Position numbers and translations under genes: made by a program. This document shows positions 2,750 to 56,430 of a stretch of DNA of 64,000 bases, piece after piece. The notes under the pieces were generated by a model. That model was given only the letters and a program-made list of their open reading frames with translations. It did no database searches and had not been told where the DNA came from. Source of the stretch: Chiloscyllium plagiosum (lineage: Eukaryota); the NCBI RefSeq assembly GCF_004010195.1, contig NC_057718.1:94800702-94864701 (forward strand). The letters run 5' to 3'. How positions within the stretch are numbered: position 1 is the stretch's first letter; each line of letters opens with the position of its first letter.

Positions 2750-2769
2750 TGAAGAACAATGAAAAGTCT

Positions 2770-25699: not shown

Positions 25700-27210
25700 A
25701 AAAGAGAAGTATTTTTGACATGCTTGACAATTCTGCTTGGGTGTCCAGCCAATAGGATGGATAAAGGAGAATCAGTGGATGTAATGCCTTTAAATTTTCA
25801 AAAATCATTCAATAAGCTGCCACACAAGATGTTATTACAGAAAGTTAGAATCCACACTTTTGGGATAATATAGTCAGATGTGGATATGTTCACTGATGAT
25901 TGTTTTCAACACTATTTGCAACTCCACAGATACTGAAGAAGCCTGTGCCAAATGCAGGAAGACATGCACAACATTTAAGTATGGGCTGACAAGTGATAAG
26001 TAACATTTGTGTCATACAAATGCTCAGCAATGACCATTTCCAACAAGAGAGAATCAATCATCTTCCCTTGACATTACAATCACTCAAAATCTCACTAACA
26101 ACATCCTTTGTCCAGAAAATGAGCTAGGCAAGTCTTATAAATATTGTGGCTAAAGGAGCAAGTTAGAGACATAGAACTTTGCAGCAAGTAACTCACCTCC
26201 TAACTCCCTAAAACATGTCCATCATTTGCAAGGCACAAGTCAGGGATGTATTGGAGTCTCCAATTGCCTGGATGGGTGCAGCTCCAACTACATTTAAGTA
26301 GATCTACACCATTCAAAACAAAAACTTCCACTTGATTGGCATCCCATCCACTGCCTACATTCAACCGTTCAATCCCTCCACCACCGATCCACAAGGTCAG
26401 CATTATCTATGATATTCTGGATCAGTGGTGCTGGAAGAGCACAGCAATTCAGGCCTGTCCTCGGATGCTGCCTGAATTGCTGTGCTCTTCCAGCACCACT
26501 GATCCAGAATCTGGTTCCCAGCATCTGCAGTCATTGTTTTTACCTCATTATCTATGATATACTAGGTGCATTTCAGTCACTCACACAATCTCCTTCGACA
26601 GTACCTTCCAAACCTATAGCTACCAGCTAGAAGGACAAGGGGAGCAGACACTAGGGAGCATCACCACTTGTAAGTTCCCTTCCAAGCAACAAACAACCCT
26701 GACTTGGCAAGCAATCACTGTTCCTTCACTGTCAACTAGGACCCAATCCTTGAACTCCCTTCCGAATAGTATTGTGGGTTTATCTATCACATGGAGTGCA
26801 GCAACTCAAGAAGACAGCTCTAATTAGGGACAGGAAATAAATACAGGCCTAGCCAGCAACACTTCTACACCATGCAAAAATATTTTAAAATTATTAGCAT
26901 GAATTGAGGATTGCTTAATGAACAGAAAGCCAAGAGTAGGAATAAACGGGAAATTTTCCAATGGTGAGTCATAACTAGCGAGGTACCAGAAACATCAGTA
27001 CTTTTTCTCAGCAATATACAATCGATATCACTGACTTAGATGAGGGGACCGAATGTAGGATATCAGAGTTTCTTGATGATAGACCATTAACTGGGAAAAT
27101 AAATGGTGGGGAGGATACAAAGAGGCTGGAAAGTGACAGATAGAGACAGGTTGTGTGAATAGGTGAAAAAACTGCACATCGAATATAATATGGTAAAGTT
27201 ATCCACATTC
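25700..27210 (+). mobile_element. Old CR1 fragment split by a LINE family-2 copy (about 25870-26880)
   Basis: RT-like sequence at 25700-25860 continues at about 26895-27210; the intervening LINE has the family-2 3' end. Confidence 0.65.
26416..26545. mobile_element. PLE family A fold-back micro-insertion with 15-bp TSD
   Basis: TSD CATTATCTATGATAT at 26401-26415 and 26546-26560; perfect 41-bp arms at 26414-26454 and 26470-26510. Confidence 0.9.
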
Positions 27211-28002
27211 CTGGCTTCAATTAAACTAATAATTAACCAGAAAAAGTTAGATGATTAAAAACATTGTCTAACTTCTGGGTAATAATTAAACTGACCTCCC
27301 AATGCACCACTGACACCTCAACTACACTTCCCCCAACTCTTACATTTCCCAGGCTCCTGACGACCAGGCTAAAGCAAATTAAGCCTCATCCTAGCAGCAT
27401 GTTTAAAGAGTAGCTTGTAAGACAAATAACCTGTTGTAGAATAAATATAGGGTTGTTCTATCAGAGACATAAATTTGTGTCAACTGTATTTTGGGGAAAG
27501 ATTGGTGTAATTCTGAAATACGAAGTGTGAAATTGCATCTCCAAAAGCAGCACTTCCACAATCCAATGCAAGCTGCAGTGTTCGAACAGGTGACAACAAT
27601 ACATTCAATGTAAAGGCTTCTCAAACTGCATGCATTGCTGTTGGAAAGTGGAAATTCACTGTAAACAGACACTGGGAGGTAGATAACACAATCAAATGTA
27701 ACCAGCTAAATAAATAAGATTGCTGACTGATTGATTCATTGCTGACAACTTTAAGGAGGGAAATAATGTACCATTGATGTGTTTAGATAACCTTTCCCAG
27801 GCTGTATCTCAGATCCTATATGGATTGTAATTACAACAGCTGATGTTATCTCATAAACATTTACTACACTCGTATCAAATTCAAACCATTACTGCTTTAA
27901 GTGAGGCATGTATTTTCAATGGTTAATAACTTTGAATCGAACAAAGAAAAACAGTTGATACAAACATATTTTAACAGTTATATCAGCAATTTCTTCCTAA
28001 AA

Positions 28003-28200
28003 TGGTGTGGAGGTGCCAGCGTTGGACTGGGATGAGCAAAGCCAAAAATCACTGGGTTGTCGTCCAACAGGTTTATTTGAAACCGCAAGCTTTCGAAGCC
28101 CCCGCTCCTTCTTCAAAATGCTAGAAATAGCAGGGTCTCGCAAAGGTTGTGGTTTCAAATAACCTGTTGGACTATAACCCAGTGTAGTGTGAGTTTTGAC
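28003..28200. mobile_element. PLE family B fold-back insertion with a degenerate hammerhead
   Basis: gtccaacaggtttatttgaaacc is inverted to ggtttcaaataacctgttggac; same family as 40724-41105. Confidence 0.75.
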
Positions 28201-28431
28201 TTCCCAATGTGGTTAGTACTTATACAGTAACATTATAGAAAATAATTTCTACTCCATCTTATCATGCAGGTACAGTGTGCTAACAAAGTAAAGCAAAGTT
28301 ACTGGTTGCTTAGGATTGTCTGATCTCTTCAGAATAACATCAGCTTTGCAACACCAAATTGTTACACCAGAATACACTACGAACATCTTGGTGGTTGCCA
28401 GGAAACTGAACTAAGTCTAACCATATAAATA

Positions 28432-28752
28432 TCAAACAATCCCGATAGTGTGGAAACAAGCCATTTGACCCATGAGTCCACGTTGAACCTCTGAAGAGCA
28501 CTTTACCCAGACCCACTCCCTTGTATTTCAAACAGCTAATCCACCTGTCTGCACACCTCAAGTAACTTAGCACAGTCAATCCACCTAACCTGCACACCTT
28601 TGGACTGTGGGAAGAAACCAGAACACGCAGAGGAAAACCCACACAGACACAGAGCGAATGTGCAAATTGCACACAGACATTTGCCCAAGGCTGGAATTGA
28701 ACCTGGGTCCCTGGTGCTGTGAGACAGCAATGCTAACCACTGAACCACTGTG
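28432..28752 (-). mobile_element. HE1-type SINE
   Basis: Full head, body and tail on the minus strand. Confidence 0.9.
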
Positions 28753-29837
28753 CACCCTACATCAGTCTGAATTTTACTGTTTTTGTGTCTATGTCTGGGT
28801 TACATTGTGCTTTGTGGAGGGAACCTCACTGCGTGGCTCAGGGACTATTTTCACCATATCTTGCCATACTAATTGCTAATCCTGTCTGTTTGGTGGCCCT
28901 CATGTCTGTTTTCATTCTCACATCTTACCACCCTCCGTTCCCAGAACAACTTGCCTCTCTTGAGGATATCCATCTGAAGACCAGCATCCCTTGCAACCAC
29001 ACCATCTTTGAAAGGCTACTAAGCACTCGGAGGATCACTGGGATCAGGAAGTTGCACTGCTTGGATAGTTCAAATGTTCAAATTAATCACACCTTTACAC
29101 CCTAAATCCTGGAGCCCCATTGAGCTCTCCATGTGACTAGTGGACTGAGTCATTGTTGCTCAGTATGTGACTACAGTGCGACAATGAACATGGAACCCTG
29201 GATATACATTGCCATAGCAATCAGTTCCATCCCTTTATGATTAACATAACCCTGGTGTTAAGATCTTTTCTGCTTTTCCAGTCCAGCTGTCAAATACAGC
29301 AAACAACAAATGCTGGAGATCACAGCGGGTCAGCACCCATGGAGAGACAGCAAGCTAACCTTTCAAGTCTAGATGACTCTTCATTAGAGCTGACATGTAG
29401 TGTGGAGGGGGTAGCATTTATGTAAGTTATGCAATAGTTGTTGAAGGGAGGTGAATGTGGGGAGGATTGCATTCCTCTAGAAATGCCTCTATGTTAATGT
29501 AACGATCATGATCATTAATTTTTCTTTCTAAAATATTAACAATCAATTTCTGTAATTAAACTGAACACCTTTAGAGTCTGTCATGGATGGTGCTCCAAAC
29601 ATTCTTCTCCAAAACATTACTCATGGTATCGGTTAGCTAAAGAATGGTGATCTCCCATTTGTAGGGGCAGCATCTGTCACTGTCAGTGGTGCGTAGACAC
29701 TCTCTACAGGCAATGATGTGCATTTTGCTCCTGGTGTACCTATACCCAGGCTGGATTCTGCTGATGTTTTGTCACTGGTGGCATTGTTGATGTTGGATTA
29801 CTTATCAGTGATGATGTCTTCCTGGGTAGTGATGTTA

Positions 29838-29968
29838 GGAAAAAGTGAGGACTGCATATGCTGGAGATCAGAGTCAAAAAGTGTGGTGCTGGAAAAGCAC
29901 AGCAGGTTAGGCAGCATCTGAGGAGGAGGAGAATCGGTGTTTCAGGCATAAGCTCTTCATCAGGAATG
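29838..29968 (-). mobile_element. PLE family A terminal-repeat insertion with hammerhead
   Basis: gtgaggactgc...tttcaggcataagctcttcatcagg is the reverse complement of the CTGATGA..GAAA unit. Confidence 0.8.
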
Positions 29969-30019
29969 TGACGTTGCTGATGTTAAGATCTTTTCTGCTT
30001 TTCCAGTTCAGCTGACTAT

Positions 30020-30625
30020 CAAATACAGAAAACAACAAATGCTGGCGATCACAGCAGATCAGCATTCATGGAGAGACAGCAAGCTAATGTTTCAAGTCTA
30101 GATGACTCTTCATCAGAGCTGACATGGAGTGGACAGCATTTATGCAATAGTTGTTGGAGGGGAGGTGAAAGTAGGGAGGATGGCATGCTGGGGGAGTTAA
30201 AATACTAATAGTTCAGATTAAGCAATCAAAATGTGAGAATATAGGACAATGGTGTGTCTAATTGCCAGAATGGAAAGAACAAACAGTCCCACTGGAGTCA
30301 GAGGAAGGGAGAGAGGACATGGTGACAGAGGGTATAAGCTAAAAGAAAGGGAAGGAATGGAAGTGGATTCACAATCTGAAGATGCTGAACTCAATATTGA
30401 GTCCAGGAGACTGTAAAGTGCCTGGTCTAAAGATAAGATGTTCCTCCAGTTTGCGCTGTAATTCACAGGAACACAGCAGCATGCTGAGGACAGACATGTT
30501 GGCATGTGAGCAGAACACTGTCTTAAAATGACTGGCTACAGGAAGGTCTGGGTCCTGCTTGCACACGGACCAGAGGTGTTCTGCAAAGCGATCACCCAGT
30601 CTGCATTTAGTTTCTCCAATGCAGA
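30020..30625 (-). mobile_element. PLE family C 3' part: GIY-YIG C-terminus plus terminal repeat
   Basis: IGETKCRLGDRFAEH...PVASHF...QRKLEEHLIFRPGTLQSPGLNIEF. Confidence 0.85.
30083..30119 (-). ncRNA. Minimal hammerhead ribozyme motif (PLE family C)
   Basis: GCU-CUGAUGA-A-GAGUC(AUCUA)GACUU-GAA-ACAU-U-AGC. Confidence 0.75.
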
Positions 30626-31486
30626 GCAAAGGCTGATATCCAAGTTCAGAACCCATGAAGATGGCCTCAACCAGGACCTTGGGTTCATGTCACACTACAG
30701 GTGACCCCACTACACTTTACACTCTCTCATACACATGCACTCTTACATACTCACACACTCACGTGGACTCTCTCACATACACACGCTGTGTCTCATAGAC
30801 AGACACATACACTCCCCACACTCACACCCACGTGCACAACCTCTCATAGGCTTATACTCCATCACACTCACACACACACTTTACCAAGCATGCACACACA
30901 CAAACGCGCACTCTCTTATGCACACTCACACTCACACACTCACCTGCACACACTGTCTCTGTCTCTCATGCACACACACACACACACACATATAAGTGTA
31001 TGGGCTGAATTTGCATTTGCAGAATTGTATTTCCAGATACATTCTATTTTGCTCAAAAAGCACACAATCTGCAGGCAGTCAATGCAAGCAGTCAATCCAT
31101 GTAATAGTTTATAAGTTGATACTTTGGAAATAGAACCAGTCTGACTCAAGATTGGAATACAGAAAGATTCTAACCTCACACCTTTAATACATTGTCTGAG
31201 CTGAGATGTCACCTTTTTAAATAAAACCTTAAATTATCTCGAGCATGTGACTCAAAAGAAGTTCTGGGTTTTACATATTAATGAACTGAAACCTGCAACC
31301 CATTCTAAAAGATGAAAGACTTAACAGCAATCTAAGTTTGTTCATTTCAGTTGCATGACACTGTAATCTTTTGCTCTAAATTCTGTGTCATATGATCCCA
31401 TTCCACAGCTATCTGATAAAGGAGCAGCCCTCCGAAAGCTAGTGCTTCCAAATAAACTTGTTTATTTGGTGTTCTGTGATTTTTAG
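30621..31486 (+). mobile_element. PLE family B 3' part: ORF C-terminus, (CA)-rich UTR and degenerate hammerhead (31413)
   Basis: AEQRLISKFRTHEDGLNQDLGFMSHYR* at 30621-30704; downstream UTR is related to 42770-43267. Confidence 0.8.
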
Positions 31487-31657
31487 CAATGTAGAGGCAG
31501 CAGTGAATACAACACAGACTCTGTTCCCTCTTGCTTGTTGACTGGCTTTATCCTCAATGACATACACCTCAGTGTCTCAGCCTCAGCAATAACTTCTGTT
31601 GGCCCTAGCTTTTCACAATTGGATCCTGAACACGTACATTGTCCTTTCAACAGCTCA

Positions 31658-31692
31658 TTTCTGATGAAGGGCTTATGCCCGAAATGTTGATT
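31658..31692 (+). ncRNA. Minimal hammerhead ribozyme motif (PLE family A)
   Basis: CUGAUGA-A-GGGC(UUAU)GCCC-GAA-AUGU-U; stem III shows a CpG-type change. Confidence 0.7.
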
Positions 31693-31782
31693 CTCCTGCT
31701 CCTCGGATACTGCCTGACCTGCTGTGCTTTTCCAGCACTACACTCTCGACTCTGAGCTGCAGCATCTGCAGTCCTCACTTTC
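31658..31782 (+). mobile_element. PLE family A solo terminal repeat with 16-bp TSD
   Basis: TSD TCCTTTCAACAGCTCA at 31642-31657 and 31783-31798. Confidence 0.9.
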
Positions 31783-32044
31783 TCCTTTCAACAGCTCAAA
31801 CAAGGTTTCACATGGTTGTCAATGTGCTGACCTCCTCCTATGTGGTCACTTGGAGAAAGTATGTTACTTGACAAAAGTGTCTTATACATTCTTTCATTCA
31901 ACAGCACTTCATTTTTGCTGTTAATATTCATTTACAGTGTATCTGAGCATCACAGATGAGATTAGCATTTTCTGTCCATAATTGTTTTGGAGAAAGTGTT
32001 GATTGCAGTCAAGTTGAATCACTGCAATTCTTGGGACATAAGGG

Positions 32045-32345
32045 CACTCGCAGAGCTATAAAGGAGGGAGTTTCAGGATTTTGACCCAGTGACACTGAAG
32101 AAATGGTGATATATTTCAAAGTCAGGATGACGAGTGGTTAGGAGGGGGAGCTGTAGGTGGTTGAATTCCCATTTGCCTGATGCCTTTCACCTTCTCAATG
32201 GTAGAGTTTAGGGGATTTACGGTAACAGTCAAAGGATCCTAGTTGAGTTACTGCTTGTGCATCTTGTAAACATAAGCATATTGAGTAGCTGGTGGACTGA
32301 GTGAATCTGTAGTGATGATGAATTAGATGCCAATCAAGTGAATTT
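32045..32345 (-). mobile_element. LINE family-2 3' region
   Basis: Reverse complement of the 'ttcactgtcactgggtcaaaatcctg' family. Confidence 0.65.
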
Positions 32346-32777
32346 CTGGATCATTGTCACATTGCACACTCAAATTTGTCAGGAATCCCGAAAGATAAAG
32401 CTAATGCCACTGTTCAGTCAAAAGCCACAGAGAAATCCATTGCACAAAGCTTCTGGTACTCTGTTGGAATTCCTACTACATATTGGTTGAAAGGTTAATT
32501 CAGTTCATTATGTTTGAACATGTTGCCAAGAATTTAGGCCATAAAACACTCACAGATACTAATAATGATACTTACCTGAAACATAGATTGCCGTGCACAC
32601 TTTTCTCAGAATGTCATTGCACTATTAAGATGATCTACTCCTGGTTATTTCCATATTTCAAACAGAGGCACCATTGATCCTGTCTGATTAGACCGCCATC
32701 AGTTTAAATGTCCATTGAAAAATTCCCAGTTCAAACTTGCTGGATTGTTAGTTTATCTGACTCATCAAGAATAAATG

Positions 32778-33068
32778 GAGCAAGTGAGGACTGCAGATGC
32801 TGGAGATCAGAGTCAAAAAGTGTGGTGCTGGAAAAGCGCAGCAGGTCAGACAGCATCCGAGGAGCAGGAGAGTCAACGTTTCGGGCCTTCATCAGGAATG
32901 TCAGGAAACCTGGAAGATAGAGCTAATGCCACTTCTCTGTCAAAAGCCACAGAGAAATCAGTTGCACAATGCTCTGATTTCTTGACATTCCTGATGAAGG
33001 ACTTATGACAGAAGTATCGAATCTCCTGCTCCTCAGATGCTCCCTGATTTTCCAGTGCTACAGTTTCG
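32778..33068. mobile_element. PLE family A fold-back insertion enclosing a copy of local DNA
   Basis: Inverted arms; 19-bp TSD (32759-32777 and 33069-33087, 2 mismatches); 32899-32976 copies 32377-32455. Confidence 0.85.
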
Positions 33069-33409
33069 GACTCTTCAAGATTAAATGACTGTCATACTCG
33101 AAGCTTTAATTTTAGGATTTATCACCTCATGATACCGTTTGTTTTATCATATGGATATATCCCGAGTTCATTAAGCACGTTCATGTGACTTCATTGAGCC
33201 AGCTCACAATGTAAGCATGTGATGATGGAGGTCAGATATGGACAAGGGTTTTCAGGCACTAATCCAGAAATGCTTCAACTTGACAGGAATAGATTTATTA
33301 CCAAAATGTAGTGAACAAAAGGATGAATTGAGTTGACAGAAATAGGTCAAACTTATTCTCAAATGTTAGTGGAATAAATAATGGATTTCAATAGCAGTGT
33401 TTTGCTTTT

Positions 33410-33605
33410 TGATGTCAACGTTTCAGGAAAAAGCTTTTCATCAGAAGTGAGGCCTCGATTTTCCTGCTCCTCGGATGCTGCCTGACCTGCTGTGCTTTTC
33501 CAGCATCACTCTAATCTTGACTAGCATCCATGGGATGCTGTGATCCGCTGTGATCTCCAGCATTTGTTGTTTTCAGTACAGATTCCAGCACCTGCTGTGA
33601 TTTGT
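33410..33605. mobile_element. Nested PLE family A and C terminal-repeat fragments
   Basis: Antisense hammerhead-like 'cgtttcaggaaaaagcttttcatcag', a sense family A body, then a family C tail. Confidence 0.65.
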
Positions 33606-34024
33606 TGAGTTATAATGTTGTGTTGGTGCTGCAAAGGATGTTTCTTGCAGTGAAGGCATTTTTGAATCCATTTACAAGGGAAGTGCAGCACTGACAAATT
33701 ATGTCATTAACCTGCCCGCTGCTTCATAAATATGTAGAAGCATTTGGACCCTCGAGCCTGTTCCACCATTAAACATGATCATAGTTCATATCCATCTCAA
33801 CTCACTTTCCTGCTCAGGGAGCAATAAACCAGTTAAGCTCACATCTGCTGTAAGCAAAATACCAGAGTCAATAATTAAGGTCAAGGTGACTGAAAAGTTT
33901 GAAAACTTTCACCTGAACAGAAAGTTGAGTGGATGTGCGCAGGGTTATCAAACTTGATGAAGTTTTTGAAGAGGTGAATAAAGAGAATGACAGGGAAATG
34001 CCTGCGGATACTAATTATAGACTG

Positions 34025-34226
34025 CATTGTCGCCGTAGTCTTACCAGGGGCTGCTCTCTTTAGAGAGAAGTGACTGGTGGTGATTTAACCTGAGGGCCAC
34101 CAGACCTCAGGTGAGGGAAGAGGTTGAGAAGGAGAGTCCTTCATGGTAGCTTCAAACCAGTGAAGGGAATTGAATCCTTGGTGTTGGCATCATACTGCTC
34201 TCAGTATGATACAGCCAACTGAGTTA
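34025..34226 (-). mobile_element. tRNA-derived SINE, family 2
   Basis: Reverse complement of the ...ctcaggttaaatcaccaccagtca... family. Confidence 0.65.
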
Positions 34227-34274
34227 CATCTTCCTAAGCCAGCAGAACTGGGCTTTTGTTGGACCCGAGAATCT

Positions 34275-34860
34275 TTTCTTTATTCATTCATGGGATGTGG
34301 GTGTCGTTAGTTATAACTCATCCCTAATTGCCCAGAGGCCAGTTTCAGAGTAAAGCACATTGCTATGGGTCTGGAGTCACTTATAGGCCAGATCAGGTAA
34401 GGATGGCAGTTTTTCTTCTCTAAAGGACAGTAGTGAACCAAATGATGCTTTTTTACAACAAATGGCAATAGTTTCATGGTCATCATTTAGATTTTTAATT
34501 CACTTTTTATTTAAGTCAAATTTTGTCATCTGTTGTATGATTCCAGGCTCAAACGACTATCTGCGTGGGTTTCCTTTGGTTGCTCCAGTTTCCTCCCACA
34601 GCCCAAAGATGTGCAGGTTAGGTGGATTGGGCATGTGAAATCGCCATAGTGTTCAGGGATGTGTATTAGTTAGGGGAAATGGAGACTAATAGGTTAGAGG
34701 ATGGGTCTGTGTGGGATACTCTTCAGAGGGTTGGTGTGGACTTGTTGGGCCAAATGGCCTGTTTCCACACTATAGGGATTCTATGAATTGGACTAAGGTT
34801 AACAGACCATTATCTGGGTCACTGGCTTATTAATCTAGTAACAAGAGCACTACACCACCC
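34275..34860 (-). mobile_element. SINE family 3 interrupted by a HE1-type SINE (34560-34786, +)
   Basis: Antisense of the 24171-24490 family; the HE1 3' part lies inside it. Confidence 0.7.
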
Positions 34861-34949
34861 CTTTCTTATTTCGGCGTAATTAAAATACCTCTTTCCACGA
34901 ATGATTTCCAAAACAGCCAGCAGGGAAAGGGGATAAAATGATGCATTAT

Positions 34950-35405: not shown

Positions 35406-35431
35406 TTCATCTTTTCCCATTCTGCAGCAGC

Positions 35432-37731: not shown

Positions 37732-38048
37732 TATTCTGAAGACGGGTCACTGGACTCAAAATGTTAACTCTGCTTTCCCTCCACAGATGCTGCCAGGCCT
37801 GCTGAGTTTTGCCAGCAACTGGGTGAGGGAGGCAAGGATAGAAGAAAAGAGGCAGAGCTGGGAGAAGCAGATAACAAACAAGACAACAAAGAACTAGAGA
37901 GGAAGACTTAGTGCCTTTTAATAGATTAATAGACAGATAGAGTACCAATGAAGCTCTGTGCTTATCAATCAAGGTGTGTCTGCATGTCCAGTAGCAAAAA
38001 AGGGATCACGTGATCTAGACTGAGTTTTTGTTTCAGATTTTCAACATT
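37732..38048 (+). mobile_element. PLE family E terminal repeat (degenerate hammerhead at 37736) interrupted by the 210-bp duplicate
   Basis: CTGAAGA-C-GGGTC(ACTG)GACTC-AAA-ATGT-T-AAC; element resumes 'gtttttgtttcagatttt' after 38021. Confidence 0.7.
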
Positions 38049-40723: not shown

Positions 40724-41105
40724 GATTTGGAGGTGCCGGTGTTGGACTGGGGTGTACAAAGTTAAAAATCACACCACACCAGGTTATAGTCCTTCAGGTT
40801 TATTTGGGAGCACTCGCTTTTGAAGCGCTGCTCCTTCATCAGGTGGTTGATGCCTTTCTTTGCAGAACTATTTTGCAGAATTATTAGATGATGCACAGAT
40901 CTATCTTTAAGTAAGCCTTTTACTGGTTCATTCTGAAACTGATCTATTTTTTGCAAGTTCAGCAATGGCTCAGAACCCCAGTGGTACTTTACATTGACGT
41001 TAAGGGAGGTGACTTATGGGAACAACCACCTGATGAAGGAGAAACGCTCCAAAAGCTGGTGCTTCCAAATAAACCAGTTGGACTATAACCCGGTGTTGTG
41101 TAAAT
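40724..41105. mobile_element. PLE family B fold-back insertion with two opposed hammerhead motifs and a ~170-bp spacer
   Basis: ctccttcatcaggtggttg (40831-40849) is inverted to caaccacctgatgaaggag (41023-41041); imperfect flanking repeat attttgttt(c)aat. Confidence 0.8.
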
Positions 41106-41779: not shown

Positions 41780-42169
41780 ACCTGGACAGAAGAGATGACC
41801 TGGGGGTTGCAGTGAGAGAGAGACTCACTGACATTCTTGTAGAGAGAGGAGGAAAACTTCTTCAAGGCAGGCATCCTTGCAAGAGGATTCACAGTAAGGT
41901 TAAAATCAACGAGGTAAAAACAAGGACTGCAGATGCTGGAAACCCAAGTCTGAATTAGAGTGGCGCTGGAAAAGCACAGCAGGTCAGGCAGCACCCAAGG
42001 AGCAGAAAAATCAACGATTTGGACAACAGCCCTTCCTTTCCTGATGAAGGGCTTTTGCCTGAAACATCGATTTTTCTGCTCCTTGGTTGCTGCCTGACCT
42101 GCTGTGCTTTTCCAGCGCCACTCTAATTCAGACTCTGGTTTCCAGCATCTGCAGTCCTTGTTTTTACCT
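41780..42169. mobile_element. PLE family A palindromic insertion including a putative ORF start
   Basis: ~125-bp inverted arms (about 41912-42035 and 42046-42169); the left arm extends into MPALKKFSSSLYKN on the minus strand. Confidence 0.85.
42037..42072 (+). ncRNA. Minimal hammerhead ribozyme motif (PLE family A), core intact
   Basis: UC-CUGAUGA-A-GGGC(UUUU)GCCU-GAA-ACAU-C-GA. Confidence 0.75.
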
Positions 42170-42726
42170 AGACAGAAGTCCAAGTTGACCCAATGGGGTC
42201 TTCAAATTACGAAAGATTCTGATAGAGTGGATACAGAGGGAATGATGGAACGTTCCCAACCACTGGATGATGTGAACGAGAATGCTGGGAAAATTAGCTG
42301 AGATATAGTAAGGGCATTCTGGGTAACAGGATCAAAAAACTTTTATTCTCCAACCAAATGTTGAACTGCGAAATGAGGGCCTCGCTAGAGAGGCAAGAGG
42401 TCTATTTGCATGGATTATCACTGATTATCATCCTCATTACTAACAAATCACGTATCATTAATATGTGGTTTCCCATTCTCCTACCCTTTCATTGTAATGC
42501 TCCTACCACTTTGTGTGAAGGGTTAGGCTTCAATTCGTGGATCAAACCAAGGTGCATCTCCAAACACCTCGCTCACACACTTAGAACTCACTCACTTTGT
42601 ACCTGCTTGAATGCTCGAAGCCTATCTGCTTTGCATTGCCTTTTTGTGGTCTACCCCTCAGCCAGATCTTGAATGTTCACTGTACTTTTGACTTGTGTTG
42701 CCTTCCTTGCAGACTTAAAGCCAGGC

Positions 42727-43267
42727 ATGATTCGGAGACGCCGGTGTTGGACTGGGGTGACATTTTTTTGTACTTGCAGAGTTACATTGCACTTTGCTCA
42801 AAAACTGCATACATTCATGTAGAACTCAGAGCTCAAAAACTGCATGAATTTATGTAAAACTGCATGAATTTATGTAAAAGTGTTATCTCACTTTTTAGAT
42901 TGGAATCAATCTAAACATCAGGTCATAGACAGAGAACACAGAGGGCTAACACCTTCAACATATTGTCTAGCTATCACCATTGTTAACAGCTAACCCGAGA
43001 ATGCAACTTTTAAAAAAAGGGTTTTGTGATTTACACATGAAAGAAGTGAAACTATCACTGTATTCTAACAGATGAAAGGCTTAACAGACAATCAATTCTT
43101 CAATGTATAATTTCAGTTACATCACACTGCAAATTTTTGCTATAAATTCTGTGTTACGATTGAGCCCTCCACAATCACCTGATGAAGGAGCATCGCTCCA
43201 AAAGCTCGTGTGCTTCCAATTAAACCTGTTGGACTATAACCTGGTGTTGTGTGATTTTTAACTTTGT
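42727..43267 (+). mobile_element. PLE family B 3' UTR and terminal repeat with a short inverted 5' arm
   Basis: Related to 31010-31486; contains a 20-bp tandem repeat aaaactgcatgaatttatgt (about 42836-42879). Confidence 0.8.
43176..43210 (+). ncRNA. Minimal hammerhead ribozyme motif (PLE family B), G12-to-A
   Basis: CAC-CUGAUGA-A-GGAGC(AUC)GCUCC-aAA-AGCU-C-GUG. Confidence 0.7.
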
Positions 43268-43590
43268 AATGCCATGCAGTTTGTCAAAGTGATCAGTCAA
43301 GGGGCTGGGTGTGTTGCTCTGCAGTTCTGTGTGACATAGTTTCACACCTGTACTATCTGTGCCAGGCTCAAATGCACCAAACACATTGAATGTGCTTCAA
43401 CTAAATGGATTGTCTCAAAGTCTGATGGAAGTTGTCCTCAGTCAAGTTAAGAGAGACACCCTCCAAGCAGGGGCATAGTATATCAATCTTATAGCTGTCC
43501 ACGGGCATGGGCATGGTCAGTCAGTCTTTCAGAGCAATCAGGGTCAGGATGACCCCCCCAAAGTGGGTGAGAAGCCGAATGTTGGGACTG

Positions 43591-43832
43591 GCTTAGTGGT
43601 GCTGGAAAAGCACAGCAGTTCTGGCAGCATCCGTGGAGCAGTAAATCGACGTTTTGGGCAAAAGCCGAGATTTTATCTCTCCACCCTTCAGGCACTCTGC
43701 CTGTATTCCTGATGAAGGGCTTTTGCCCAAAACGTCGATTTTACTGCTCCTCGGATGCTGCCTGAACTGCTGTGCTTTTCCAGCACTACTAATCCAGAAT
43801 CTGGTTTCCAGCATCTGCAGTCATTATTTTTA
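43591..43832. mobile_element. PLE family A fold-back insertion with 16-bp TSD; hammerhead at 43709-43740
   Basis: TSD CCGAATGTTGGGACTG at 43575-43590 and 43833-43848; inverted arms. Confidence 0.9.
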
Positions 43833-44164
43833 CCGAATGTTGGGACTGTCATTACCCATCTTGATTCATTCTGTCCAACTGTGGGCTGTTTTTGTCTGGA
43901 ATAAGGGAGAGAATGAGTGTGATGAGGGAAGTGGTTGCACATCTGTTTGTGCTGGTGTGGGTGAGGGAAAGGTGGTGACTTGGCTCGAATGAGTGAGTGA
44001 GTGAGTCAGAGAAGCAGAAGGTGATGGAAGGTTTAGTGATGGGGAGGGGAATGACAGCGAGTGGTGAAAATTGTTGCAGGCAATAGTGAGAGTGGTAGAT
44101 GATGAGTTGAGAGGTTGGTGTAGTAAGAGATTGAGTGAGTGTGAAGTCACAGAAAAAAGTTGAC

Positions 44165-47800: not shown

Positions 47801-47925
47801 TGGAGGTATTTAGGTGTATGCAGTGGTAGAGTGTTTTCACTGATACCTCTATTTGTATAGAGAGCATCCTAATGCAGCATCTGTGAATTTCACCTGGAGT
47901 GGAAGGAAAACATCTGTCGGTGCCA

Positions 47926-48194
47926 TTGGGAAAAGATATGAAAGGGAGCTAAGAGGCAACCTTTTCATGCAGAGGGTGCTGCATGGATGGAATGATCTAC
48001 CAGAGGAAGTGGTGAAGGCTGGGACAATTACAACATTTAAAAGGCATGTGGATGGGTTCAGTAATAGGAAGGGCTTAGAGGGATAAGGATAAATGCTGGC
48101 AAATGGGACTAGATTAATCTTGGATATCTGGTCAGCATGAGCAGGTTGGACTGAATGGTCTGCCTCTGTGCTGTACATCTCTATGACTCTATGA
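47926..48194 (+). mobile_element. CR1 3' end
   Basis: GKRYERELRGNLFMQRVLHGWNDLPEEVV; ctctatgactctatgac tail. Confidence 0.9.
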
Positions 48195-49164
48195 CATGGT
48201 GTAAATACTTACTTTGATACTCACACTGTTGAATGTTAGCTCACGTTGGGTCTCAATGGGCTGCTCATTGTCACCACCTGACTCTCTAGCCAGGCTAGAA
48301 CTTCAGTGGGTCTTGCCTTTAAACCATGTAGTTCACTGTTTCGGTGTTTAAAATGCTGCATCTTAGTTTGTAGCCACTCATGGCATCAAACCATTTGTTT
48401 TGCTCTTTGCTTTTTGCAATGACTTCTGATGTTGCATGCCTTGCATATTACATTAACAACTGGGCAGATTCTGTGTGCATATATGAGGCTGCACCACCTG
48501 CATTGTTTAAGGGACTTGCTATCTCCCAAAGGCAGATATATTACACTCTTTCAACCCACATGCCTTCGCAATTGGGTCTGTTTTGTAGTTGTTCTTCCAC
48601 AGTATAATCTTTGAGGTGATCCAAGATGTCTCCTTCAAATGTTTCCATTGGGATAGATGTTAACATGAGCTTGATTATTCTGTTGGCTAGCTCTGTTTGC
48701 AGTGAAATCGCAATCCTGCCCCTTATCTCTGCATCTACCTATGATTCAGTCAATGCTAACTAAAAAGGCCTGAGCTCTGGATAACATAATTTGGAACTGA
48801 GCTTAACTCTCATTTGATCTTCAGGTTGTGACTAGATCTGACCTGGATCTTTATGATGGTTGTTGGACAGACCTGACTTGATCAATCCTCATTGCTGGGA
48901 GCAATTTTAATTTTAGTGGCTTGTTTATTTGATTCAGAAGTATTGGAAAATATGGTTCAATACCTTGTCAGAACACTATAAATGTGATTGGAGATCTGTT
49001 GCTTTCCAACTGAAGGTTGACTGCAGCTTTTAATGCTATCTGGAGCTTTTAATAGCTATTCAGGTTTCTTCCAGTTCATTTAGAATCAACTTTGCTTTGA
49101 TTTACAGAATGTTTAATAGCTACTGCCTCATCATCGAGGTGTAGGTTATAGTTTGACTTCCGTC

Positions 49165-49370
49165 ACACTATAACCTGCACATCCCTGAACACTATGGGGC
49201 AATTTAGTATGGTCAATTCACCTAACCTGCATAGTTTTGGATTATGGGAGGAAACCCACACAGACACGGGAAGAATGTACAAACTCCACACAATCACCTG
49301 AGGCTGGAATCAAACCTAGATCCTTAGCACTGTGAGGCAGCAGTGTTAACCACTGGCCCACTGTGCTGCA
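49165..49370 (-). mobile_element. HE1-type SINE, 5' and central part
   Basis: Antisense head and central domain. Confidence 0.85.
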
Positions 49371-49719
49371 CCACAACTTCTGTTCCTGAATAAACTTTAC
49401 ATCACGTAGATTACTAAACCCTTCCACCTAAATTTTACAATCAAATCTTCAAAACTGTTTCCATTTTATGGAAGGTACTCTTTAAAAAAAGTTTTCAGAA
49501 ACGACAAGCTACCAGCATGATACAGTCTTCTCTTCGAAGCAAACATATCATTCACACAAAGGGATTGGTGGAACAGTTATGTAGGTTCTCTATGAGAAGT
49601 TAAAACTATTTACAGATAACGCTCACTGAGAGCCAAGCATTGTACATCTGATCTCCATCGCTGCTGCTCCAATCTGCCTGTACGTCATGACGTGAATGCT
49701 GTTGCAGCACATAAAGACT

Positions 49720-49925
49720 AGGGATTGATTAGCTCAGTTGGCTAGATAGCTGGCTTATGATGCAGATTGATATGGACAGTGTGGGTTCAATTTCTCCACC
49801 AGCTGAGGTTACTATGAAGATCCTGCCTTCCCAACCTTAACCTTGTCTGAAACATAGTGACTATCAGATTAAACCACAACCAGTTACCCCTCGTTAATGG
49901 GTGTGCAGGAAGTTGGCAACTTTAC
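49720..49925 (+). mobile_element. tRNA-derived SINE, family 2
   Basis: TTAGCTCAGTTGG A box and GGGTTCAATT B box. Confidence 0.65.
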
Positions 49926-50104
49926 CTATGTAAGCATTGGCAATAACTTCAAATATACTTTCCCAAGGTGCATACAAATCAAATTATATTTCTAATTGGC
50001 AAGAGTGAGACAGATTTGAGACTTTGGAAAATGTCAAGTTATGCTAATTATAAACATGACGTACATTTAAAAAGGTTACATTTTAAAAATCAAATGATCA
50101 CTCG

Positions 50105-50290
50105 TAATCAAAAAGAACTGCAGATGCCAGAAATCAGAAACAAAAGCAGAAATTGCTGGAAAAACTCAGCAGGTCTGGCAGTATCTGTGGAGAGAAAACA
50201 GAGTTAACGTTTCGGGTCCAGTGACTCTTCTTCAAAACATGTTTAACTCACATCGGTTGATTTTGTCTAGCAATTTCTGTTTTTACTTTA
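50105..50290 (-). mobile_element. PLE family E terminal repeat with hammerhead (50203-50238) and a short inverted arm
   Basis: Reverse complement reads GUU-uUGAAGA-A-GAGUC(ACUG)GACCC-GAA-ACGU-U-AAC. Confidence 0.75.
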
Positions 50291-50619
50291 CATTCATAGG
50301 TTAGTTATCAACTTGTAAATCCTTTCCAGATGCTAATGGCATGCACTAAGAGTGAGAGAATCTCTCTGTCTATCAAACGTGATGAGGAACTGTACTCCTC
50401 AAGCTCTTCCCTCTCGTGACAGAATAGTGGTGACCCATTCCAGAGAAATCATAAAGAAAATTAGTACATTCTTATAACAAAGGTAAGACACCACAGATGC
50501 TGGAAGTCTGAAACAAACACAGAGAATGGTAGATATATATTTGTTGGACAAGGGTATTAAGGTTTTAAGACCCGAAGTGAACCATTGGAGGTAATATTCA
50601 GAACAGACATGAACTAATT

Positions 50620-50942
50620 GGGATAGCACTGTGGCTCAGTGGTTAACACTGCTGTCTCACAGTGCCGGGGACTCGGGTTCGATTCCACCCTCAGGTGATC
50701 ATCTGTGTGGTGTTTGCATGCTCTCCCTGTGTCCTCCAGGTCCTCCAGTTTTCTTCTACTGTCCAAAGATGTGCAGGTTAGGGTGGCTTGACCATGCTAA
50801 ATTACCCATAGTGTCCATGGGTGTGCAGGCTAGGTGGGTTAGCCACAGGAAATGTGGAGTGACAGGGATTGGGTGGGGATGCTCTTTGGAAGGGCAGTGT
50901 GAGTCAAATGGCCTGCTTCCACAATGTAGGGAATCTATGATT
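50620..50942 (+). mobile_element. HE1-type SINE nested in a decayed PLE family E fold-back (about 50480-51062)
   Basis: SINE with GGTTCGATTCC B box; flanks read 'cagatgctggaagtctgaaacaaacacagagaatg' and 'ctccagcattctctgtgtttgttt'. Confidence 0.8.
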
Positions 50943-51599
50943 TAACCAATTTGGCAGCATTCTGAAGATGAGCCTTTCTGGACTTAAAACATTAATTGTG
51001 TTTCTCTCTCCACGGATGTTTCCTGGCCGCTAAACTTCTCCAGCATTCTCTGTGTTTGTTTAAGCAGGTTATTTGTCTGCTTCATGCAGCATTAGATGCA
51101 GGAAGTTGCTAAATCTAAATAACAAGTAAACTGTTACTGGAAGATTTGCTTGATTACATCTTTTAATTGCTAAATCGACAAAATGTACAAAAGGGTATGC
51201 AATAATTAGACGTTTCCCTTTTTGTATATATATTTCTAATATGATCCAGTTATGATATTTTATACAGAATATCTTGAATAGATTGGGACAGCCACGCTCA
51301 TGACTTGTAGATCCAAGACGCTAACATCTAACAAGGTTTAAAAGTACAACAGCTCCACCTTTAGAGATTCTGCAGTAATTTGAAACATTCAATGCTCTTT
51401 GATCCAGAAATGTTCAAAAGACATGTTGCAGTCTCAATTATAACCTGTGTCAGTACAAAGGCATCCTCCATTGGATTGTTCATGTCTTGCAAAGTGAAAT
51501 GATGTCGGTTTAAGTACGTAACAAGTTTGAATTAAAACAGTAGGTAATGGAAAAGAATGTAGCCACCAATTTTTGTTGCAGCCTGATGCCCATAAATAT

Positions 51600-52035
51600 A
51601 CAAGTTATAGAAAGGATATTATTAAACTGGAGAGGGTTCAGAAGATATTTACTAGAATGTTGCTGGGTATGGAAGGTTTAAGTTATAAAGAAAGGCTGGA
51701 TAGGCTGGGACGTTTTTGACTGAGCGTAAGAGGTTGAGAGGCGACCTGATAGAAGTTAATAAAATAATGAGGGGTACAGATAGCATTAATGGTAGTTGCC
51801 TTTTCCTTAGGATGGAAGATTTCAAGACTAGGGGTCACATTTTTAAGGTGAGAGGAGAGAGATTTTAAAAAGACATTGGGACAAATTGTTTACACAGAGG
51901 TTCGCATGTGGAATGATCTTCCCTGAGGAAAAATTACAATATTTAAAAGACTTTTTGATAAATACATGAATAGGAAAGATTTTGTGAGGTATGGGCTAGG
52001 AGCCGGCAGGTGGGACTAGCTTATTTTGGGGTTAT
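51600..52035 (+). mobile_element. CR1 3' part
   Basis: KDIIKLERVQK...LSYKERLDRLG-like sequence and 3' end. Confidence 0.85.
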
Positions 52036-52044
52036 CTGATCACA

Positions 52045-52178
52045 CCTTCCTGATGAAGAGCTTATGCTTGAAACATTGACTCTCCTGCTCCTCAGACGCT
52101 TCCTGACCAGTTGTGTTTTTCCAATACCACACTTTTTGACTCTGATCTCCAGCATCTGCAGTCCTCACTTTCTCCTCC
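52045..52178 (+). mobile_element. PLE family A solo terminal repeat; hammerhead at 52050-52080
   Basis: CTGATGA-A-GAGC(TTAT)GCTT-GAA-ACAT-T-GA; common 3' end gcagtcctcactttctcc. Confidence 0.8.
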
Positions 52179-52787
52179 TTAAAGGTGAAGTCATTTAAAG
52201 GAAAGGTACACATACAATAATCTCCTCCTTTCCAAAAGATGGGTTAAAATAGGGGATGAATGTTCCATTAAAAAAAACAAATTATAAATTCTCTAATAAC
52301 TATTAAAGATAGATAAAATAAAGGATTTTATGTATAAATGTAGAATAAAGATTAAGATAGGCCTTTTTAGTTTTCAAGATGTCACTCTGTGTGTCAATTG
52401 ATAACTGTTACTTCACCCTAAGAATATTGAACAGCCTAGTCATTAAGTTTACACACGTGGTTCAAAATGCTTTCCAATGATAGGAAATTCACTGTGCAAG
52501 CTAAAGATTAAAGCAGTTGTTTTCAGCTAACACAACATGATTACTTTTATATTGCTGAGAAAAAGAGGCATGCTTTCAAAGTTCCTTGTCTCGTCCACCA
52601 AGGGACAAAAGTCCCCTCATGCATTCGTACAGAAAAATAGAAAATAGAAACAGTTGGTGTCTACTTGCCAACCAATCAGCAGCCTTTTTCTTTTCCTGTA
52701 TAAATTGTTGCACCACTCAAAATTTGAAATTCTTGTGTCTGTCCTGATGAGTGCACAATGACAAGCAGTGCTTAAGTTCTGTACATG

Positions 52788-53008
52788 TTGTGGAGGTGCT
52801 GGCGTTGGATTGGGTGGACAAAGTTAAATATCAGGAGAAAGTGAGGACTGCAGATGCTGGAGATCAGAGTCAAAGAGTGTGGCGCTGGAAAAGCACAGCA
52901 GGTCAGACAGCATCCAAGGAGCAGGAGAGTCAACATTTCAAGCATAAGCCCTTCATCAGGAATGAGGCTTCCTCTTGGGCTGTAACCTGGTGTGTGATTT
53001 TTAAACTA
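52788..53008. mobile_element. PLE family B fold-back interrupted by a family A copy (52833-52965, -)
   Basis: Family B arms flank an antisense family A unit carrying a hammerhead. Confidence 0.7.
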
Positions 53009-53629
53009 TGTTGTGTACTACCAAGAAACTATCATTACATTGATGGGACTAGATTAATTTAGGATATCTGGTTGACATGGACGAGTTGGACCAAAGGGTC
53101 TGTTTCTGTGCTGCACATCTTTATGACTCTATAACTCAGTATCATTTTAATTATTTCGCTAACATTTTGAAACTTGAAGGACCTAGCCTCTCCAAACATC
53201 CTGGGCTTTGTCATGATATTCTTTGCTTTGAATAGTGACCTTGAGCTAAATTTGTATGGTCGATTCAGAGCTCTTAGATTTTCTTGGAGATCCTGGTATC
53301 ATTTATTCAACTGTGACAGTGGGTGAATTTTCTTTATCACCATCAGTTTCCTCAATTCAATTCTGGAAACAAAACAAAGATCAAAGCTTTGGTTCATGTA
53401 AACCTGGTGTTGAAAGATTTTTTTTTAACAAGAAACAAACATGATCTGAAGTAAAGAGAAAGTGGGGAACAGTGGGATGGGAGTAGGAAAGGGGAGGTCA
53501 GTGGCATTGGAGCAAGGGGAAGAGGAGACATGGCCATAGCTTGGTTGATAAAAGGGAATATGTCGGAATAGTGATGGGAATACGACGTTAGTATGAAGGC
53601 TCAAGGGTAGTGAGGGGGAGACACAAGAA

Positions 53630-54400
53630 CTAGGAACAAGAGTAGGCAATTCAGAACCTCAAATCTACTCCACTATTTAATATGATCGTGATTGATCTCA
53701 TTACAATCTCAACTCCACTTTCTCACCTGCTCTCCATAACCTTACAATTAGCTACTAATCAAAAATCTATCTGTATGTTCCTTAAATTTATTCAATGTCC
53801 CCCCATCCATTGCACTCTGGAATAGTGAATGCCCACTCGTGATCCTTTCAGAGAAACAATTTCTCATTATCTCTGTTTTGAATATGCTACCATTGTCCTA
53901 AACTATGACCTCTCATTCTGGGTTGCCCCACAAGTGGAAACATCCTTATGACATCGACATTGTCAATATCTTTTAGCACCTTACATACCTCAATTAGATT
54001 TCCATGAATTCTTCTAAACTTGAGAGAGTTTAGGCCTAAACTGCTCTATCTCTCTTCATAAGACAAACCCATCATTCCTAGAATTAATCTAGTGAAACTG
54101 CTCTGAATTACCTCTAACTGTATCCCTCCTCAAAATTGGACACAATACTGTACTGACTTACTAATTCCTTGCAAAGTTGCAGGAATACTTCTTTTTTAGT
54201 CCCAAGATGTGCACATCAGATGAATTGACCATGCTAAATTGCCCATACTATTAGGTGCATTAGTCAGAGGGAAATGGGTCTGGGTGGGTTGCTCTTCAGA
54301 GGGTCAGTGTGGACTTGTTGGGCCGAAGGGCCTGTTTCCACACTGTAGAGAATATAATCTAATCTAATCTTATACTCTATTAGCAATGAATGCCAAAAAT
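53630..54400 (-). mobile_element. Old CR1 3' region with a HE1-type SINE 3' half inserted (54198-54370, +)
   Basis: Similar to the 55232 and 59030 family; SINE tail (AATCT)n. Confidence 0.7.
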
Positions 54401-55231
54401 GGGGTCAAGAAAGAGGTAGAGAAATTGACGGGGAGTAAGATGCATCAGTGAGGTGGAAAGATGGGAAGGGAACCATTAAGGGTGAGTTGCAATCTATGAT
54501 TAGGAAAGCATGTACAATTAAGAGAGTTAAGGGATATTATCCATGTGACACCATGCCATGTGGATATTGTGCTGTCATGTCATGTGATATTCCTGCATTA
54601 AAATGGTGCTAATCCCACCTTGCCACTGTACTTTGAATCCCCAAAAGAAAATCACTTGGGCAAAGCCCAGACACATTGATGTCTTGCAATTGTAATATAA
54701 TATAGCTGCGTTGTAGTTACATTTCCTGTGATGTGTTTGCAGTAAGAACATGGTCTCAGTGTTCATGTTACGAGAGCTAACACAATAGCACAAGAATTCA
54801 TTGAGGGGAATGTTTTCACTCCAGCCTCCTACCCATGCAGCTTTCAACAGTTCTTCCCACACAAAACGATAAAAGGAAAAAGCAGAGAAACTAGAAATGG
54901 ACAGAGAGAAGCTGAAAGAAGATTCAAAGGGACAGCAGTAGCAAAGGGGGTTAGAGAAGCACACACAATGACGCACGGATAATAAACAACATGACTGTAC
55001 CTTATTTCCCAATTTAAAAAAATACATCAACAAGTTCATGGGTAGTTTTGGTTCCTTTCTGAAACACACACCTGAATGCTTCATGATTTACTTCATGATA
55101 ACAACAATAACTTGAAATATATCATGCTGAATTTTCATAACTTTATAAAACATTCATTAGTTTGTGCTGTAGTGTTCTTGCAAATCACAGCAAGTCTGCT
55201 CTGTTATTTGTGGAGGTGCACTGCCCTTTTA

Positions 55232-56430
55232 AGTAAGACCAGAAGATCATATGACCTAGGAGCAGAAATTAGGCCATTCAGCTCCATCGAGTCTGCTCCG
55301 CCATTCAATCATGGCGGATAAGTTTCTCAAGGAGGAGAAAGTGAGGACTGCAGATGCTGGAGATGGCTGATACGTTTTTCAACCCCATTCTCCTGCTTTC
55401 TCCCTTTAACTCTTGATCCCCTACAATCAAGACAAGGCAAGGCCCCTACAACCAAGAACCTATCTATCTCAATCTTAAACACACTCAGCGACCTGGCCTC
55501 CACAGTCTTCTGTGGTAATGAATTGCGTAGGTTCACCAATCTCTGGCTGATAAAGTTTCTCCTAATCTCCGTCCTAAAAGGTCCTCCCTTTACTCTCAGA
55601 CTATGCCCTCAGGTCCTAGTCTCTCCAACCAATAGAAACATCTTCCCAACATCCATTCTGTCCAGGCCATTCTGTAGTCTGTATGCTTCAATTAGAACCC
55701 CTTCATCCTTCTAAACTCTATCAAGTATAAACCCAGAGTCCTCAAACATTCCTCATATGTTAAGCTTTTCAGATTCTCCTCTTATCACAGCTCCAGGGCC
55801 AGTACATTCATTCCCAAAACTGTGCACAATATTCCAAATGTCGTCTGACCAAGCCTTATACAGCCTCAGAAGTATATCCTTCCTTTTATGTTCAAGTTTC
55901 TCAAAATAAATGCTTTCATTGCATTTGCCTTCCTAACTACTGACTCAACCTGGAAGTTTACCTTGAAAGAATCTTGGACTAGAACTCCCAAGTCTCTCTG
56001 CACTTCAGACTTTGGAATTTTCTCCCCATTTAGAAAATAATCCATGCCTCTATTCTTCCTACCAGAGTGCATGACCTCACACTTTCCTACATTGTACTCC
56101 ATTTGCCATTTCTTTGCCCAATTTCCTAAGCTGTCCCAATCCTTCTGCAGCCTCCCTGCCTCCTCAATGCTACCTGTCCCTCTACCTATCTTTGTATCAT
56201 CTGCAAACTTAGCCAGAATGCCCTCAGTTCCTTCCTCTAGATTGTTAATGAATAAAGTGAAAAGTTGTGGTCCCAACACAGAGCCTTGTGGAAACACCAC
56301 TTGTCACCGGTTGCCATCCTGAGAAGGACCCGTTTATCCCCACTCTCTGGTGTCTGCCAGACAGCCAAGCTTCTATCCATGCGAGCACCTTGCCTCTGAC
56401 ACCATGGGTCCTTATGTAGGACCTCTGAGA
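55232..56430 (-). mobile_element. CR1 LINE, RT to 3' end
   Basis: PQGSVLGPQLFTLFINNL...AKFADDTKIG...WQMEYNVGKCEVMH. Confidence 0.9.
55331..55362 (-). mobile_element. 32-bp PLE family A end with ~20-bp TSD
   Basis: GGAGGAGAAAGTGAGGACTGCAGATGCTGGAG between atggcggataagtttctcaa and atggctgatacgtttttcaa. Confidence 0.8.

Follow-up and report, generated by a model that had tools for sequence, protein, structure and literature searches.

Penelope-like element termini bounded by 12-20 bp target-site duplications in a 64-kb window of the Chiloscyllium plagiosum genome, and a possible route to their head-to-head arms

Introduction

Insertions of Penelope-like elements (PLEs) are characterised by 5' truncation, an adjacent inverted and 5'-truncated copy, and a tail of 30-40 bp on one side only (PMC8557442, PMC8969392). 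The completion of their integration, with its inverted ends and one-sided tail, has been termed unresolved (PMC8557442, PMC11167929). Here we describe short PLE-like inserts in a stretch of 64,000 nucleotides (nt) from the shark Chiloscyllium plagiosum (assembly GCF_004010195.1, contig NC_057718.1, positions 94,800,702 to 94,864,701 of the forward strand), which was analysed over its whole length and is referred to below as the window. An earlier reading of its letters alone, hereafter the sequence-only reading, had described solo or fold-back PLE termini enclosed by target-site duplications (TSDs). Our analysis indicates that the inserts are almost certainly PLE retro-insertions, that their outer ends fall at two preferred positions, and that both ends of the cut target probably primed reverse transcription (RT).

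In the sections drawn on here of the description of endonuclease-bearing (EN+) Penelope elements in the rotifer Adineta vaga (PMC3846280), the inverted pseudo-long terminal repeat (pLTR) is about 37 bp shorter and a 31-bp tail is present on one side only. The TSD encloses the whole unit, with an empty allele as proof, and some copies lack a TSD; solo pLTRs occur, and unrelated host DNA is found trapped between solo pLTRs inside a TSD. For Poseidon of Anolis carolinensis (PAc), Frangieh et al. 2024 reported that both target strands are cut and extended in vitro, that two internal RT start sites lie on either side of the tail, and that a dimer is predicted; the PAc pLTR carries a hammerhead, and uncleaved RNA serves as the template (PMC11167929). 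Metazoan PLE hammerheads have a minimal type I core with a 4-bp stem II (PMC4209133), and non-LTR retrozymes are dispersed hammerhead monomers that include one chondrichthyan example (bioRxiv 10.64898/2026.07.22.740005). Miniature inverted-repeat transposable elements (MITEs) are defined as short, non-coding, duplication-flanked units with terminal inverted sequence (PMC8969392), and twin priming is mentioned in a paper on large L1 rearrangements (bioRxiv 10.1101/2024.12.14.628481). Each of these papers is cited for the passages drawn on here.

No paper on shark PLE TSD lengths or on PLE twin priming turned up in a search outside which most subscription journals lay. Twin priming of L1, attributed to Ostertag and Kazazian (2001), is reported to start from both target 3' ends and to leave a 5' inversion within one TSD. 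The two L1 segments are copied from separate regions of a single RNA, with no fixed landing place for the second primer.

Results

Self-comparison of the window yielded 13 loci related to one element family (family A) and one unit of another (family B), and division of the locus 21490-21717 in two brought the number of inserts tested to 15. Boundaries were placed by homology and by hand, with prior knowledge of the six TSD pairs of the sequence-only reading, and the best duplication was sought within 8 nt on either side of them. All six pairs were recovered, with 0, 0, 0, 2, 3 and 0 mismatches at 26401, 31642, 43575, 32759, 55311 and 18458, respectively. Strong scores (11 to 16) were obtained at six of the 15 inserts (18458, 21472, 26401, 31642, 32759 and 43575), all above the maximum of 10 reached by 1,500 random position pairs. 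When 210 mismatched real boundaries were used as a second null set, 209 scored 7 or less, the other being a trivial self-overlap of two adjacent inserts. The strong group includes a 13-bp exact TSD (21472-84/21578-90) absent from the sequence-only reading. Borderline duplications were seen at 55311, with a score of 8 that 0.6% of random pairs attain, at 29830 (8 bp, 0.6%) and at 41780 (1.9%), and those at 21591, 33413, 37740, 50114, 52043 and 52833 were at background level within the 8 nt searched.

The TSD signature is real, yet not universal, so that it does not hold as the general rule which the sequence-only reading made of it. The lengths of the six earlier TSDs and of those at 21472 and 41780 were 12, 13, 13, 15, 16, 16, 19 and 20 bp (mean, 15.5 bp). 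The stagger had been put at about 15-20 nt, an interval that holds five of these eight; the range is really 12-20 bp. The AT content of the TSDs was 44-80%, and no ATT or strongly AT-rich consensus was seen. At all 10 outer junctions inspected, the continuation of the element shares 1-6 nt with the TSD (a raw count without a null). The inserts are as follows, with strand where assigned and end positions counted from the predicted hammerhead cut; "main" denotes the tailed arm.

18458..18469: left copy of the 12-bp family B TSD; contigs of relatives match only from the right copy onward
18470..18925, minus strand: family B main arm with the 3' end of a PLE open reading frame (ORF; GIY-YIG region), a hammerhead core and a 32-nt tail; end at +74
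18925..19529: captured host spacer of ca. 600 bp, containing an old 3' piece resembling a long interspersed nuclear element (LINE)
19520..19703, minus strand: second family B fragment, a direct repeat of 18675-18839 (96% identical)
19704..19894, plus strand: tail-less inverted arm of family B; end at +42; 97.4% identity with the main arm
19893..19904: right copy of the 12-bp family B TSD
21472..21590: insert with a 13-bp exact TSD; inverted arm (-9 to ca. +64) plus a tail piece of 23 nt (+78 to +100), without overlap in template coordinates
21591..21691, plus strand: solo family A arm with a short-site end, adjoining the TSD of the 21472 insert; no TSD of its own
26401..26560: fold-back with a 15-bp exact TSD; inverted arm 26416-26454 (+64), main arm 26455-26545 (+98)
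29830..29985, minus strand: solo family A arm, -33 to +99, inserted where another PLE-like repeat ends; possible 8-bp TSD
31642..31798, plus strand: solo family A arm from the hammerhead to +99, with a 16-bp exact TSD; element end and TSD start match over 4 nt
32377..32451, plus strand: local template of the spacer in the 32759 insert (87% over 75 nt)
32759..33087: head-to-head arms with a 19-bp TSD (2 mismatches), present in both relatives too; arms 32778-32903 (minus strand, end +98) and 32978-33074 (plus strand, end +66); spacer 32899-32977, copied from 32377-32451
33413..33522: head-to-head family A pieces, a hammerhead-only piece on the minus strand and an arm on the plus strand (end +66); TSD not found
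41780..42178: fold-back with a possible 13-bp TSD (1 mismatch; 41780-92/42166-78); plus-strand arm ending at +101, minus-strand arm continuing to about +220 to +230
43575..43848: hairpin with a 16-bp exact TSD; inverted arm 43591-43666 (end +61), main arm 43667-43832 (-70 to +98); 94% identity between the arms
52043..52179, plus strand: solo family A arm, -31 to +99; TSD not found
52833..52966, minus strand: solo family A arm, end +99; TSD not found
55311..55382, minus strand: 32-nt insert consisting of the tail alone (+67 to about +102), with a 20-bp TSD (3 mismatches), within a multi-copy LINE-like 3' end

PLE pieces of both families together cover about 4% of the window.

Contigs from four of 24 listed public runs were compared with positions 18200-34200, a region that leaves 41780 and 43575 outside. 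Three runs came from relatives (X5 and X12 from organism B, X8 from organism C) and one, X15, from organism A, which had the largest word share of all the species. Joints linking different repeat copies (e.g. 29968 to 31661) were set aside, since a spacer and a neighbouring insertion are indistinguishable in them. At 18458, contigs from all three relative runs began to match exactly where the right TSD copy starts (19893), and 220, 109 and 87 further letters of these contigs did not fit the PLE arm. In X5, variants at 18329-18357 had a depth of 16, equal to that of the contig beginning at 19893. By distance-to-end, the X5 left piece ended at 18457-18458 and not at 18469, which implies one TSD copy unless 11-12 bases were deleted there. 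The contigs of the relatives thus lack the 18458 insert, and on this indirect evidence their site apparently holds one TSD copy. The sequence-only reading had proposed asking whether empty sites hold both repeat copies; no such case was seen, and 18458 points, indirectly, to a single one.

At 26401, one X5 contig began exactly at 26546 with 186 letters left over; among the matches listed, this site was empty in one of the three relative runs, and none of those matches fell at 21472 or 31642. The 32759 insert was present in all three and is therefore an older insertion. Paralogous host repeats also fitted best with a single TSD copy, by small margins in both cases: the scores were 258 with one TSD copy, 250 with two and 222 with none at 55311, and 255, 252 and 246, respectively, at 26401.

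The family B unit (18470-19894) represents the 3' end of an EN+ PLE. Its frame matched eight proteins assigned to carpet sharks, with identities of 66-86%; among them is P0002, whose C-terminus shows 86% identity with the fragment in the window. P0002 has a weak RT match followed by a C-terminus that we take to be a GIY-YIG-type region. Hammerhead cores lie at 19819 (plus strand) and 18577 (minus strand), the tail is 32 nt long and the inverted arm 191 nt.

Family A is, on its architecture, very probably a PLE as well. It has a one-sided tail, an adjacent head-to-head inverted copy and 5' truncation, and all five of its TSD-flanked hairpins are head-to-head. A minimal hammerhead core is present in eight arms (21596, 29963, 31661, 32895, 33444, 42041, 52050 and 52959) and folds, as a predicted ribozyme, with a 4-bp stem II. 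Pfam gave no match for any of three PLE-like fragments. A protein search with the family A run-on 41788-42012 found no relatives; four matches from a further protein search were unrelated repeat proteins without a match to the window and were discarded. A degenerate tail pattern had no matches in metagenome and viral contigs, and a look-up for look-alike stretches in other genomes returned none. The long arm at 41780-41911 extends ca. 130 nt beyond the usual end, in an open frame; this extension may be captured DNA or, as a resemblance suggests, the beginning of the ORF of the element.

The outer 3' ends of 18 family A arms fell mainly into two classes, 10 at +98 to +101 and six at +59 to +72, with one each at +3 and at about +220 to +230. 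Between 0 and +97 there are seven ends, and six of them cluster within 13 nt, for which uniform placement would give a P of about 0.002. The near-fixed end that the sequence-only reading had placed ca. 95 nt beyond the cleavage site lies 96-99 nt past the predicted hammerhead cut in copy 43667. The other end had been called variable; the inverted arms instead end at a second preferred site, mostly at +61 to +66, i.e. 32-37 nt short of the main end. In family B the two ends are at +74 (long) and +42 (short). A long end is paired with a short end in five of six TSD-flanked hairpins; in the sixth, 41780, the shorter arm nevertheless ends at the long site. The insert at 55311 (32 nt from 55331) is the exact interval between the long and short sites. 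The second end is best read as a second RT start site.

Ten of the 18 arms extend through the hammerhead core to -28 or beyond. The 5' ends of nine, a count that includes the ruler arm itself, lie at -28 to -35, just ahead of the core and not at the cut (21591, 29977, 31658, 32903/32978, 33450, 42036, 52043 and 52966). Either RT halts after the ribozyme, or a non-autonomous unit of ca. 135 nt exists.

Host DNA separates the arms in two hairpins. The 75-nt spacer at 32759 is 87% identical to 32377-32451 (E 2e-21), its only other copy in the window, which lies 310-380 bp upstream of the left TSD and is spanned unbroken by contigs in all four runs. There is a 5-nt match at the left junction, and the divergence of the spacer is similar to that of the TSD pair (2/19). 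The spacer was thus copied locally from 32377-32451. The 18458 unit holds about 600 bp of non-PLE DNA (18925-19529) between its PLE pieces. The relatives hold this DNA at single-copy depth, with the match beginning at 18925, yet without the insert; this spacer was therefore captured from a locus not found in the window. A weak observation concerns 19021, where one X15 contig, at depth 8 and 12 letters short of the contig end, has the spacer base of the relatives; it is possibly the source copy.

Several further repeats were noted. Another hammerhead-bearing repeat occupies 29977-30689, 29252-29472 and 33527-33600, with a GIY-YIG-like frame at 30369-30689 (minus strand) for which a protein search found no relatives. 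The family A terminus resembles the GIY-YIG-linked repeat at 29985-30135 no more than shuffled sequence does (score 39 against a shuffle maximum of 42), and this comparison was not used. Family A copies lie at ends of this repeat twice (29837 and 33413), hinting that family A inserts into other PLE termini. Older, diverged relatives of the family A terminus lie at 37735-37817 (score 61 against a shuffle maximum of 47) and 50110-50245 (90 against 38), neither with a significant TSD. A further short repeat family with a hammerhead-like core at its start is found at 31405-31493, 40755-40842, 41022-41074, 43168-43268 and 28066-28098. The 904 bp at 22854-23757, which hold an RT-like frame (RVT_1 match) and are skipped by contigs of organisms B and C, are a lineage-specific LINE fragment; no clear TSD was seen at their edges. 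An assembly gap at about 15450-15730 (274 N in the window) lies within a purine-rich low-complexity tract.

Discussion

The inserts can be described as dead-on-arrival, 5'-truncated insertions of EN+ PLEs, each of which would have been assembled at its own site. A GIY-YIG endonuclease would nick both target strands at positions 12-20 nt apart, the spacing seen in the TSDs. RT would then start within the RNA, primed by one target 3' end, at the long site (family A, +98 to +101; family B, +74); these positions are observed, and priming at them is suggested by the in vitro work on PAc. For a solo insert, the cDNA would simply be linked with the opposite target end. A hairpin would involve a second cDNA, primed by the remaining target 3' end at the short site, observed 32-37 nt upstream (+61 to +66 in family A, +42 in family B). 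Since the arms overlap in template coordinates in five of six hairpins, a tandem RNA or two RNAs are needed, and the second template may be the second pLTR copy of a tandem RNA or a second RNA. Head-to-head joining of the two cDNA ends would come last. The join would be either direct, at a few shared bases, or bridged by host DNA, which is a local copy at 32759 and was brought from another place at 18458. The one-sided tail would then correspond to the distance between the two start sites. That both target ends prime, one per RT start site, with the cDNAs joined head to head, is the account we consider probable. The sequence-only reading had offered a staggered cut with twin priming or snap-back. 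Priming from both ends is the part we favour; literal L1 twin priming does not fit, since non-overlapping arms occur in one of six hairpins (21472) only and the other five overlap.

The account that competes most directly is cDNA snap-back, in which a single target end primes and the first cDNA folds on itself, copies itself and is joined to the second end, halting near +64 through a block by bound protein. Self-priming has been suggested for rotifer PLE inversions (PMC3846280). It would suit arms that cover common template positions and have private variants in common (41/41 identical at 26401; 1/46 differences at 41912/42036), as well as the near-palindromic centres at 26454 and 42036. However, the inverted arms end where a second RT start site is expected, and this fixed second site favours two-end priming over snap-back. 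Moreover, the shorter arm of 41780 ends at the long site, and the 23-nt direct piece at 21472 is too short to be the template of an inverted arm that contains sequence missing from it. At 32759, the arms are ca. 80 nt apart through locally copied host DNA, with the same starting base in both, and PAc extends both strands (PMC11167929). We regard snap-back as rather unlikely. Endonuclease-independent capture, with PLE cDNA patching staggered breaks and with TSDs and spacers arising by polymerase-theta-type end joining, would fit the locally templated spacer with its 5-nt match, the variable length of the TSDs, their absence in six of 15 inserts, and the lack of an ATT or AT-rich consensus. It gives no account of both ends lying at two fixed element positions, and the PAc endonuclease cleaves both strands in vitro (PMC11167929); as a replacement for two-end priming it is very improbable, and end-joining repair may instead act alongside it at the final joining step.

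The hairpins could themselves be mobile, as MITE-like units or palindromic non-autonomous retroposons copied whole from masters. Summed depth at the 26455-57 junction was 224,631-307,916 in X15 against 745-11,036 in the three relative runs, an excess of 30-400 times that is either an artefact or a recurring junction, and organism B contigs with a junction shorter by 3 nt reached about 5-7 times single-copy depth. Nevertheless, depth differs tenfold within one species (745 against 7,510 in the organism B runs), a few very deep short contigs with end mismatches can account for the values, and low-level recurrence would be expected of a 2-nt-match junction in a very large family. None of the six hairpins repeats another's junction or arm lengths; recurring identical fold-back units, which the sequence-only reading had proposed looking for, were thus not seen within the 64 kb. 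The termini are asymmetric with the tail at one end, TSDs vary from 12 to 20 bp, and one arm is 32-37 nt longer in five of six, so that the symmetric terminal inverted repeats and fixed TSD length of MITEs are not found. The window hairpins are very probably not MITEs, and their being copied whole is very unlikely. Scarcely any weight falls on chance, on direct repeats that predate the inserts, or on two separate insertions side by side that resemble one unit. The 18458 unit, in which three PLE pieces accompany 600 bp of host DNA, and the three borderline TSDs could be read so, but none of the 1,500 random pairs attains the six strong scores, and the contigs of the relatives skip the entire 1.4-kb unit, its spacer lying elsewhere in them. 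Non-LTR retrozymes were rejected on the absence of tandem hammerhead units among 10 tandem-repeat rows of the window. Overall, the empty-site evidence and the six distinct hairpin junctions support the retro-insertion origin, true TSDs and MITE-like appearance proposed from sequence.

Several observations weigh against PLE retro-insertion by two-end priming. Six of the 15 inserts have no detectable TSD. Family A is not tied to any protein, three protein searches having been negative, and an Rfam search of the window at gathering thresholds gave no hammerhead match. The rulers stop at +98 to +101, so the tightness of the long class is partly imposed. The overlap of the arms in five of six hairpins and their shared private variants are predicted equally by snap-back, a palindrome that later lost part of its sequence could explain why the arms at 21472 do not overlap, and the number of hairpins is small (n = 6). 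The empty-site joint at 18458 is not among the 15 joints listed of 11,561.

More tentatively, a PLE dimer may nick the strands 12-20 nt apart and give each target end one start site, with bridging frequent. If so, the tail, the inversion and the TSD would be three read-outs of a single geometry, shark PLE stubs would be a routine source of small host-sequence duplications, and copies numbering in the tens of thousands would allow the second-strand step of PLE integration to be tested in vivo at genome scale. In short TSD-bounded inserts both junctions are placed with single-base precision, and a genome-wide tally in sharks could therefore decide between two-end priming and snap-back. Annotators should be warned that such hairpins are very probably not MITEs.

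The architecture is already known for Penelope elements, and the shark inserts add modest mechanistic detail. The novelty implied by the sequence-only reading does not stand: inverted and solo pLTRs with a TSD and trapped host DNA (PMC3846280) and a tail between RT starts (PMC11167929) appear in the published passages drawn on here. What the window adds is longer TSDs, the pairing of one site with each end, an empty site at an orthologous locus and a spacer templated locally.

In comparison with known systems, the shark inserts share with A. vaga the shorter inverted copy, the tail, the TSD, solo ends and host capture. They differ in their TSDs (12-20 bp against 8-10 bp) and in units that are far shorter, 32-290 nt with one of 1.4 kb. 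The source of the 32759 spacer lies 310-380 bp from the target, and such local templating is not met in the sections of the A. vaga description drawn on here (PMC3846280). General PLE units are long or tandem, unlike the shark ones, which are mostly pLTR-sized stubs (PMC8557442, PMC8969392). As in PAc, the shark end sites bracket the tail and the arms read through the hammerhead core. The PAc start at +111 to +118 from the ATG, with the cut at +26, lies about 85-92 nt past the cut, against +99/+64 and +74/+42 in the shark families; the passages of the PAc account considered here give no TSD length and assign no start site to each insertion end (PMC11167929). With retrozymes the shark copies share a minimal core with a 4-bp stem II in scattered short copies; they differ in being single or head-to-head, with no tandem unit arrays in the window. 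In contrast to L1, the arms overlap in five of six hairpins, the second end is fixed and poly(A) is absent. Unlike MITEs, they have asymmetric ends, a variable TSD length and retroelement-derived sequence, with no unit recurring in the window.

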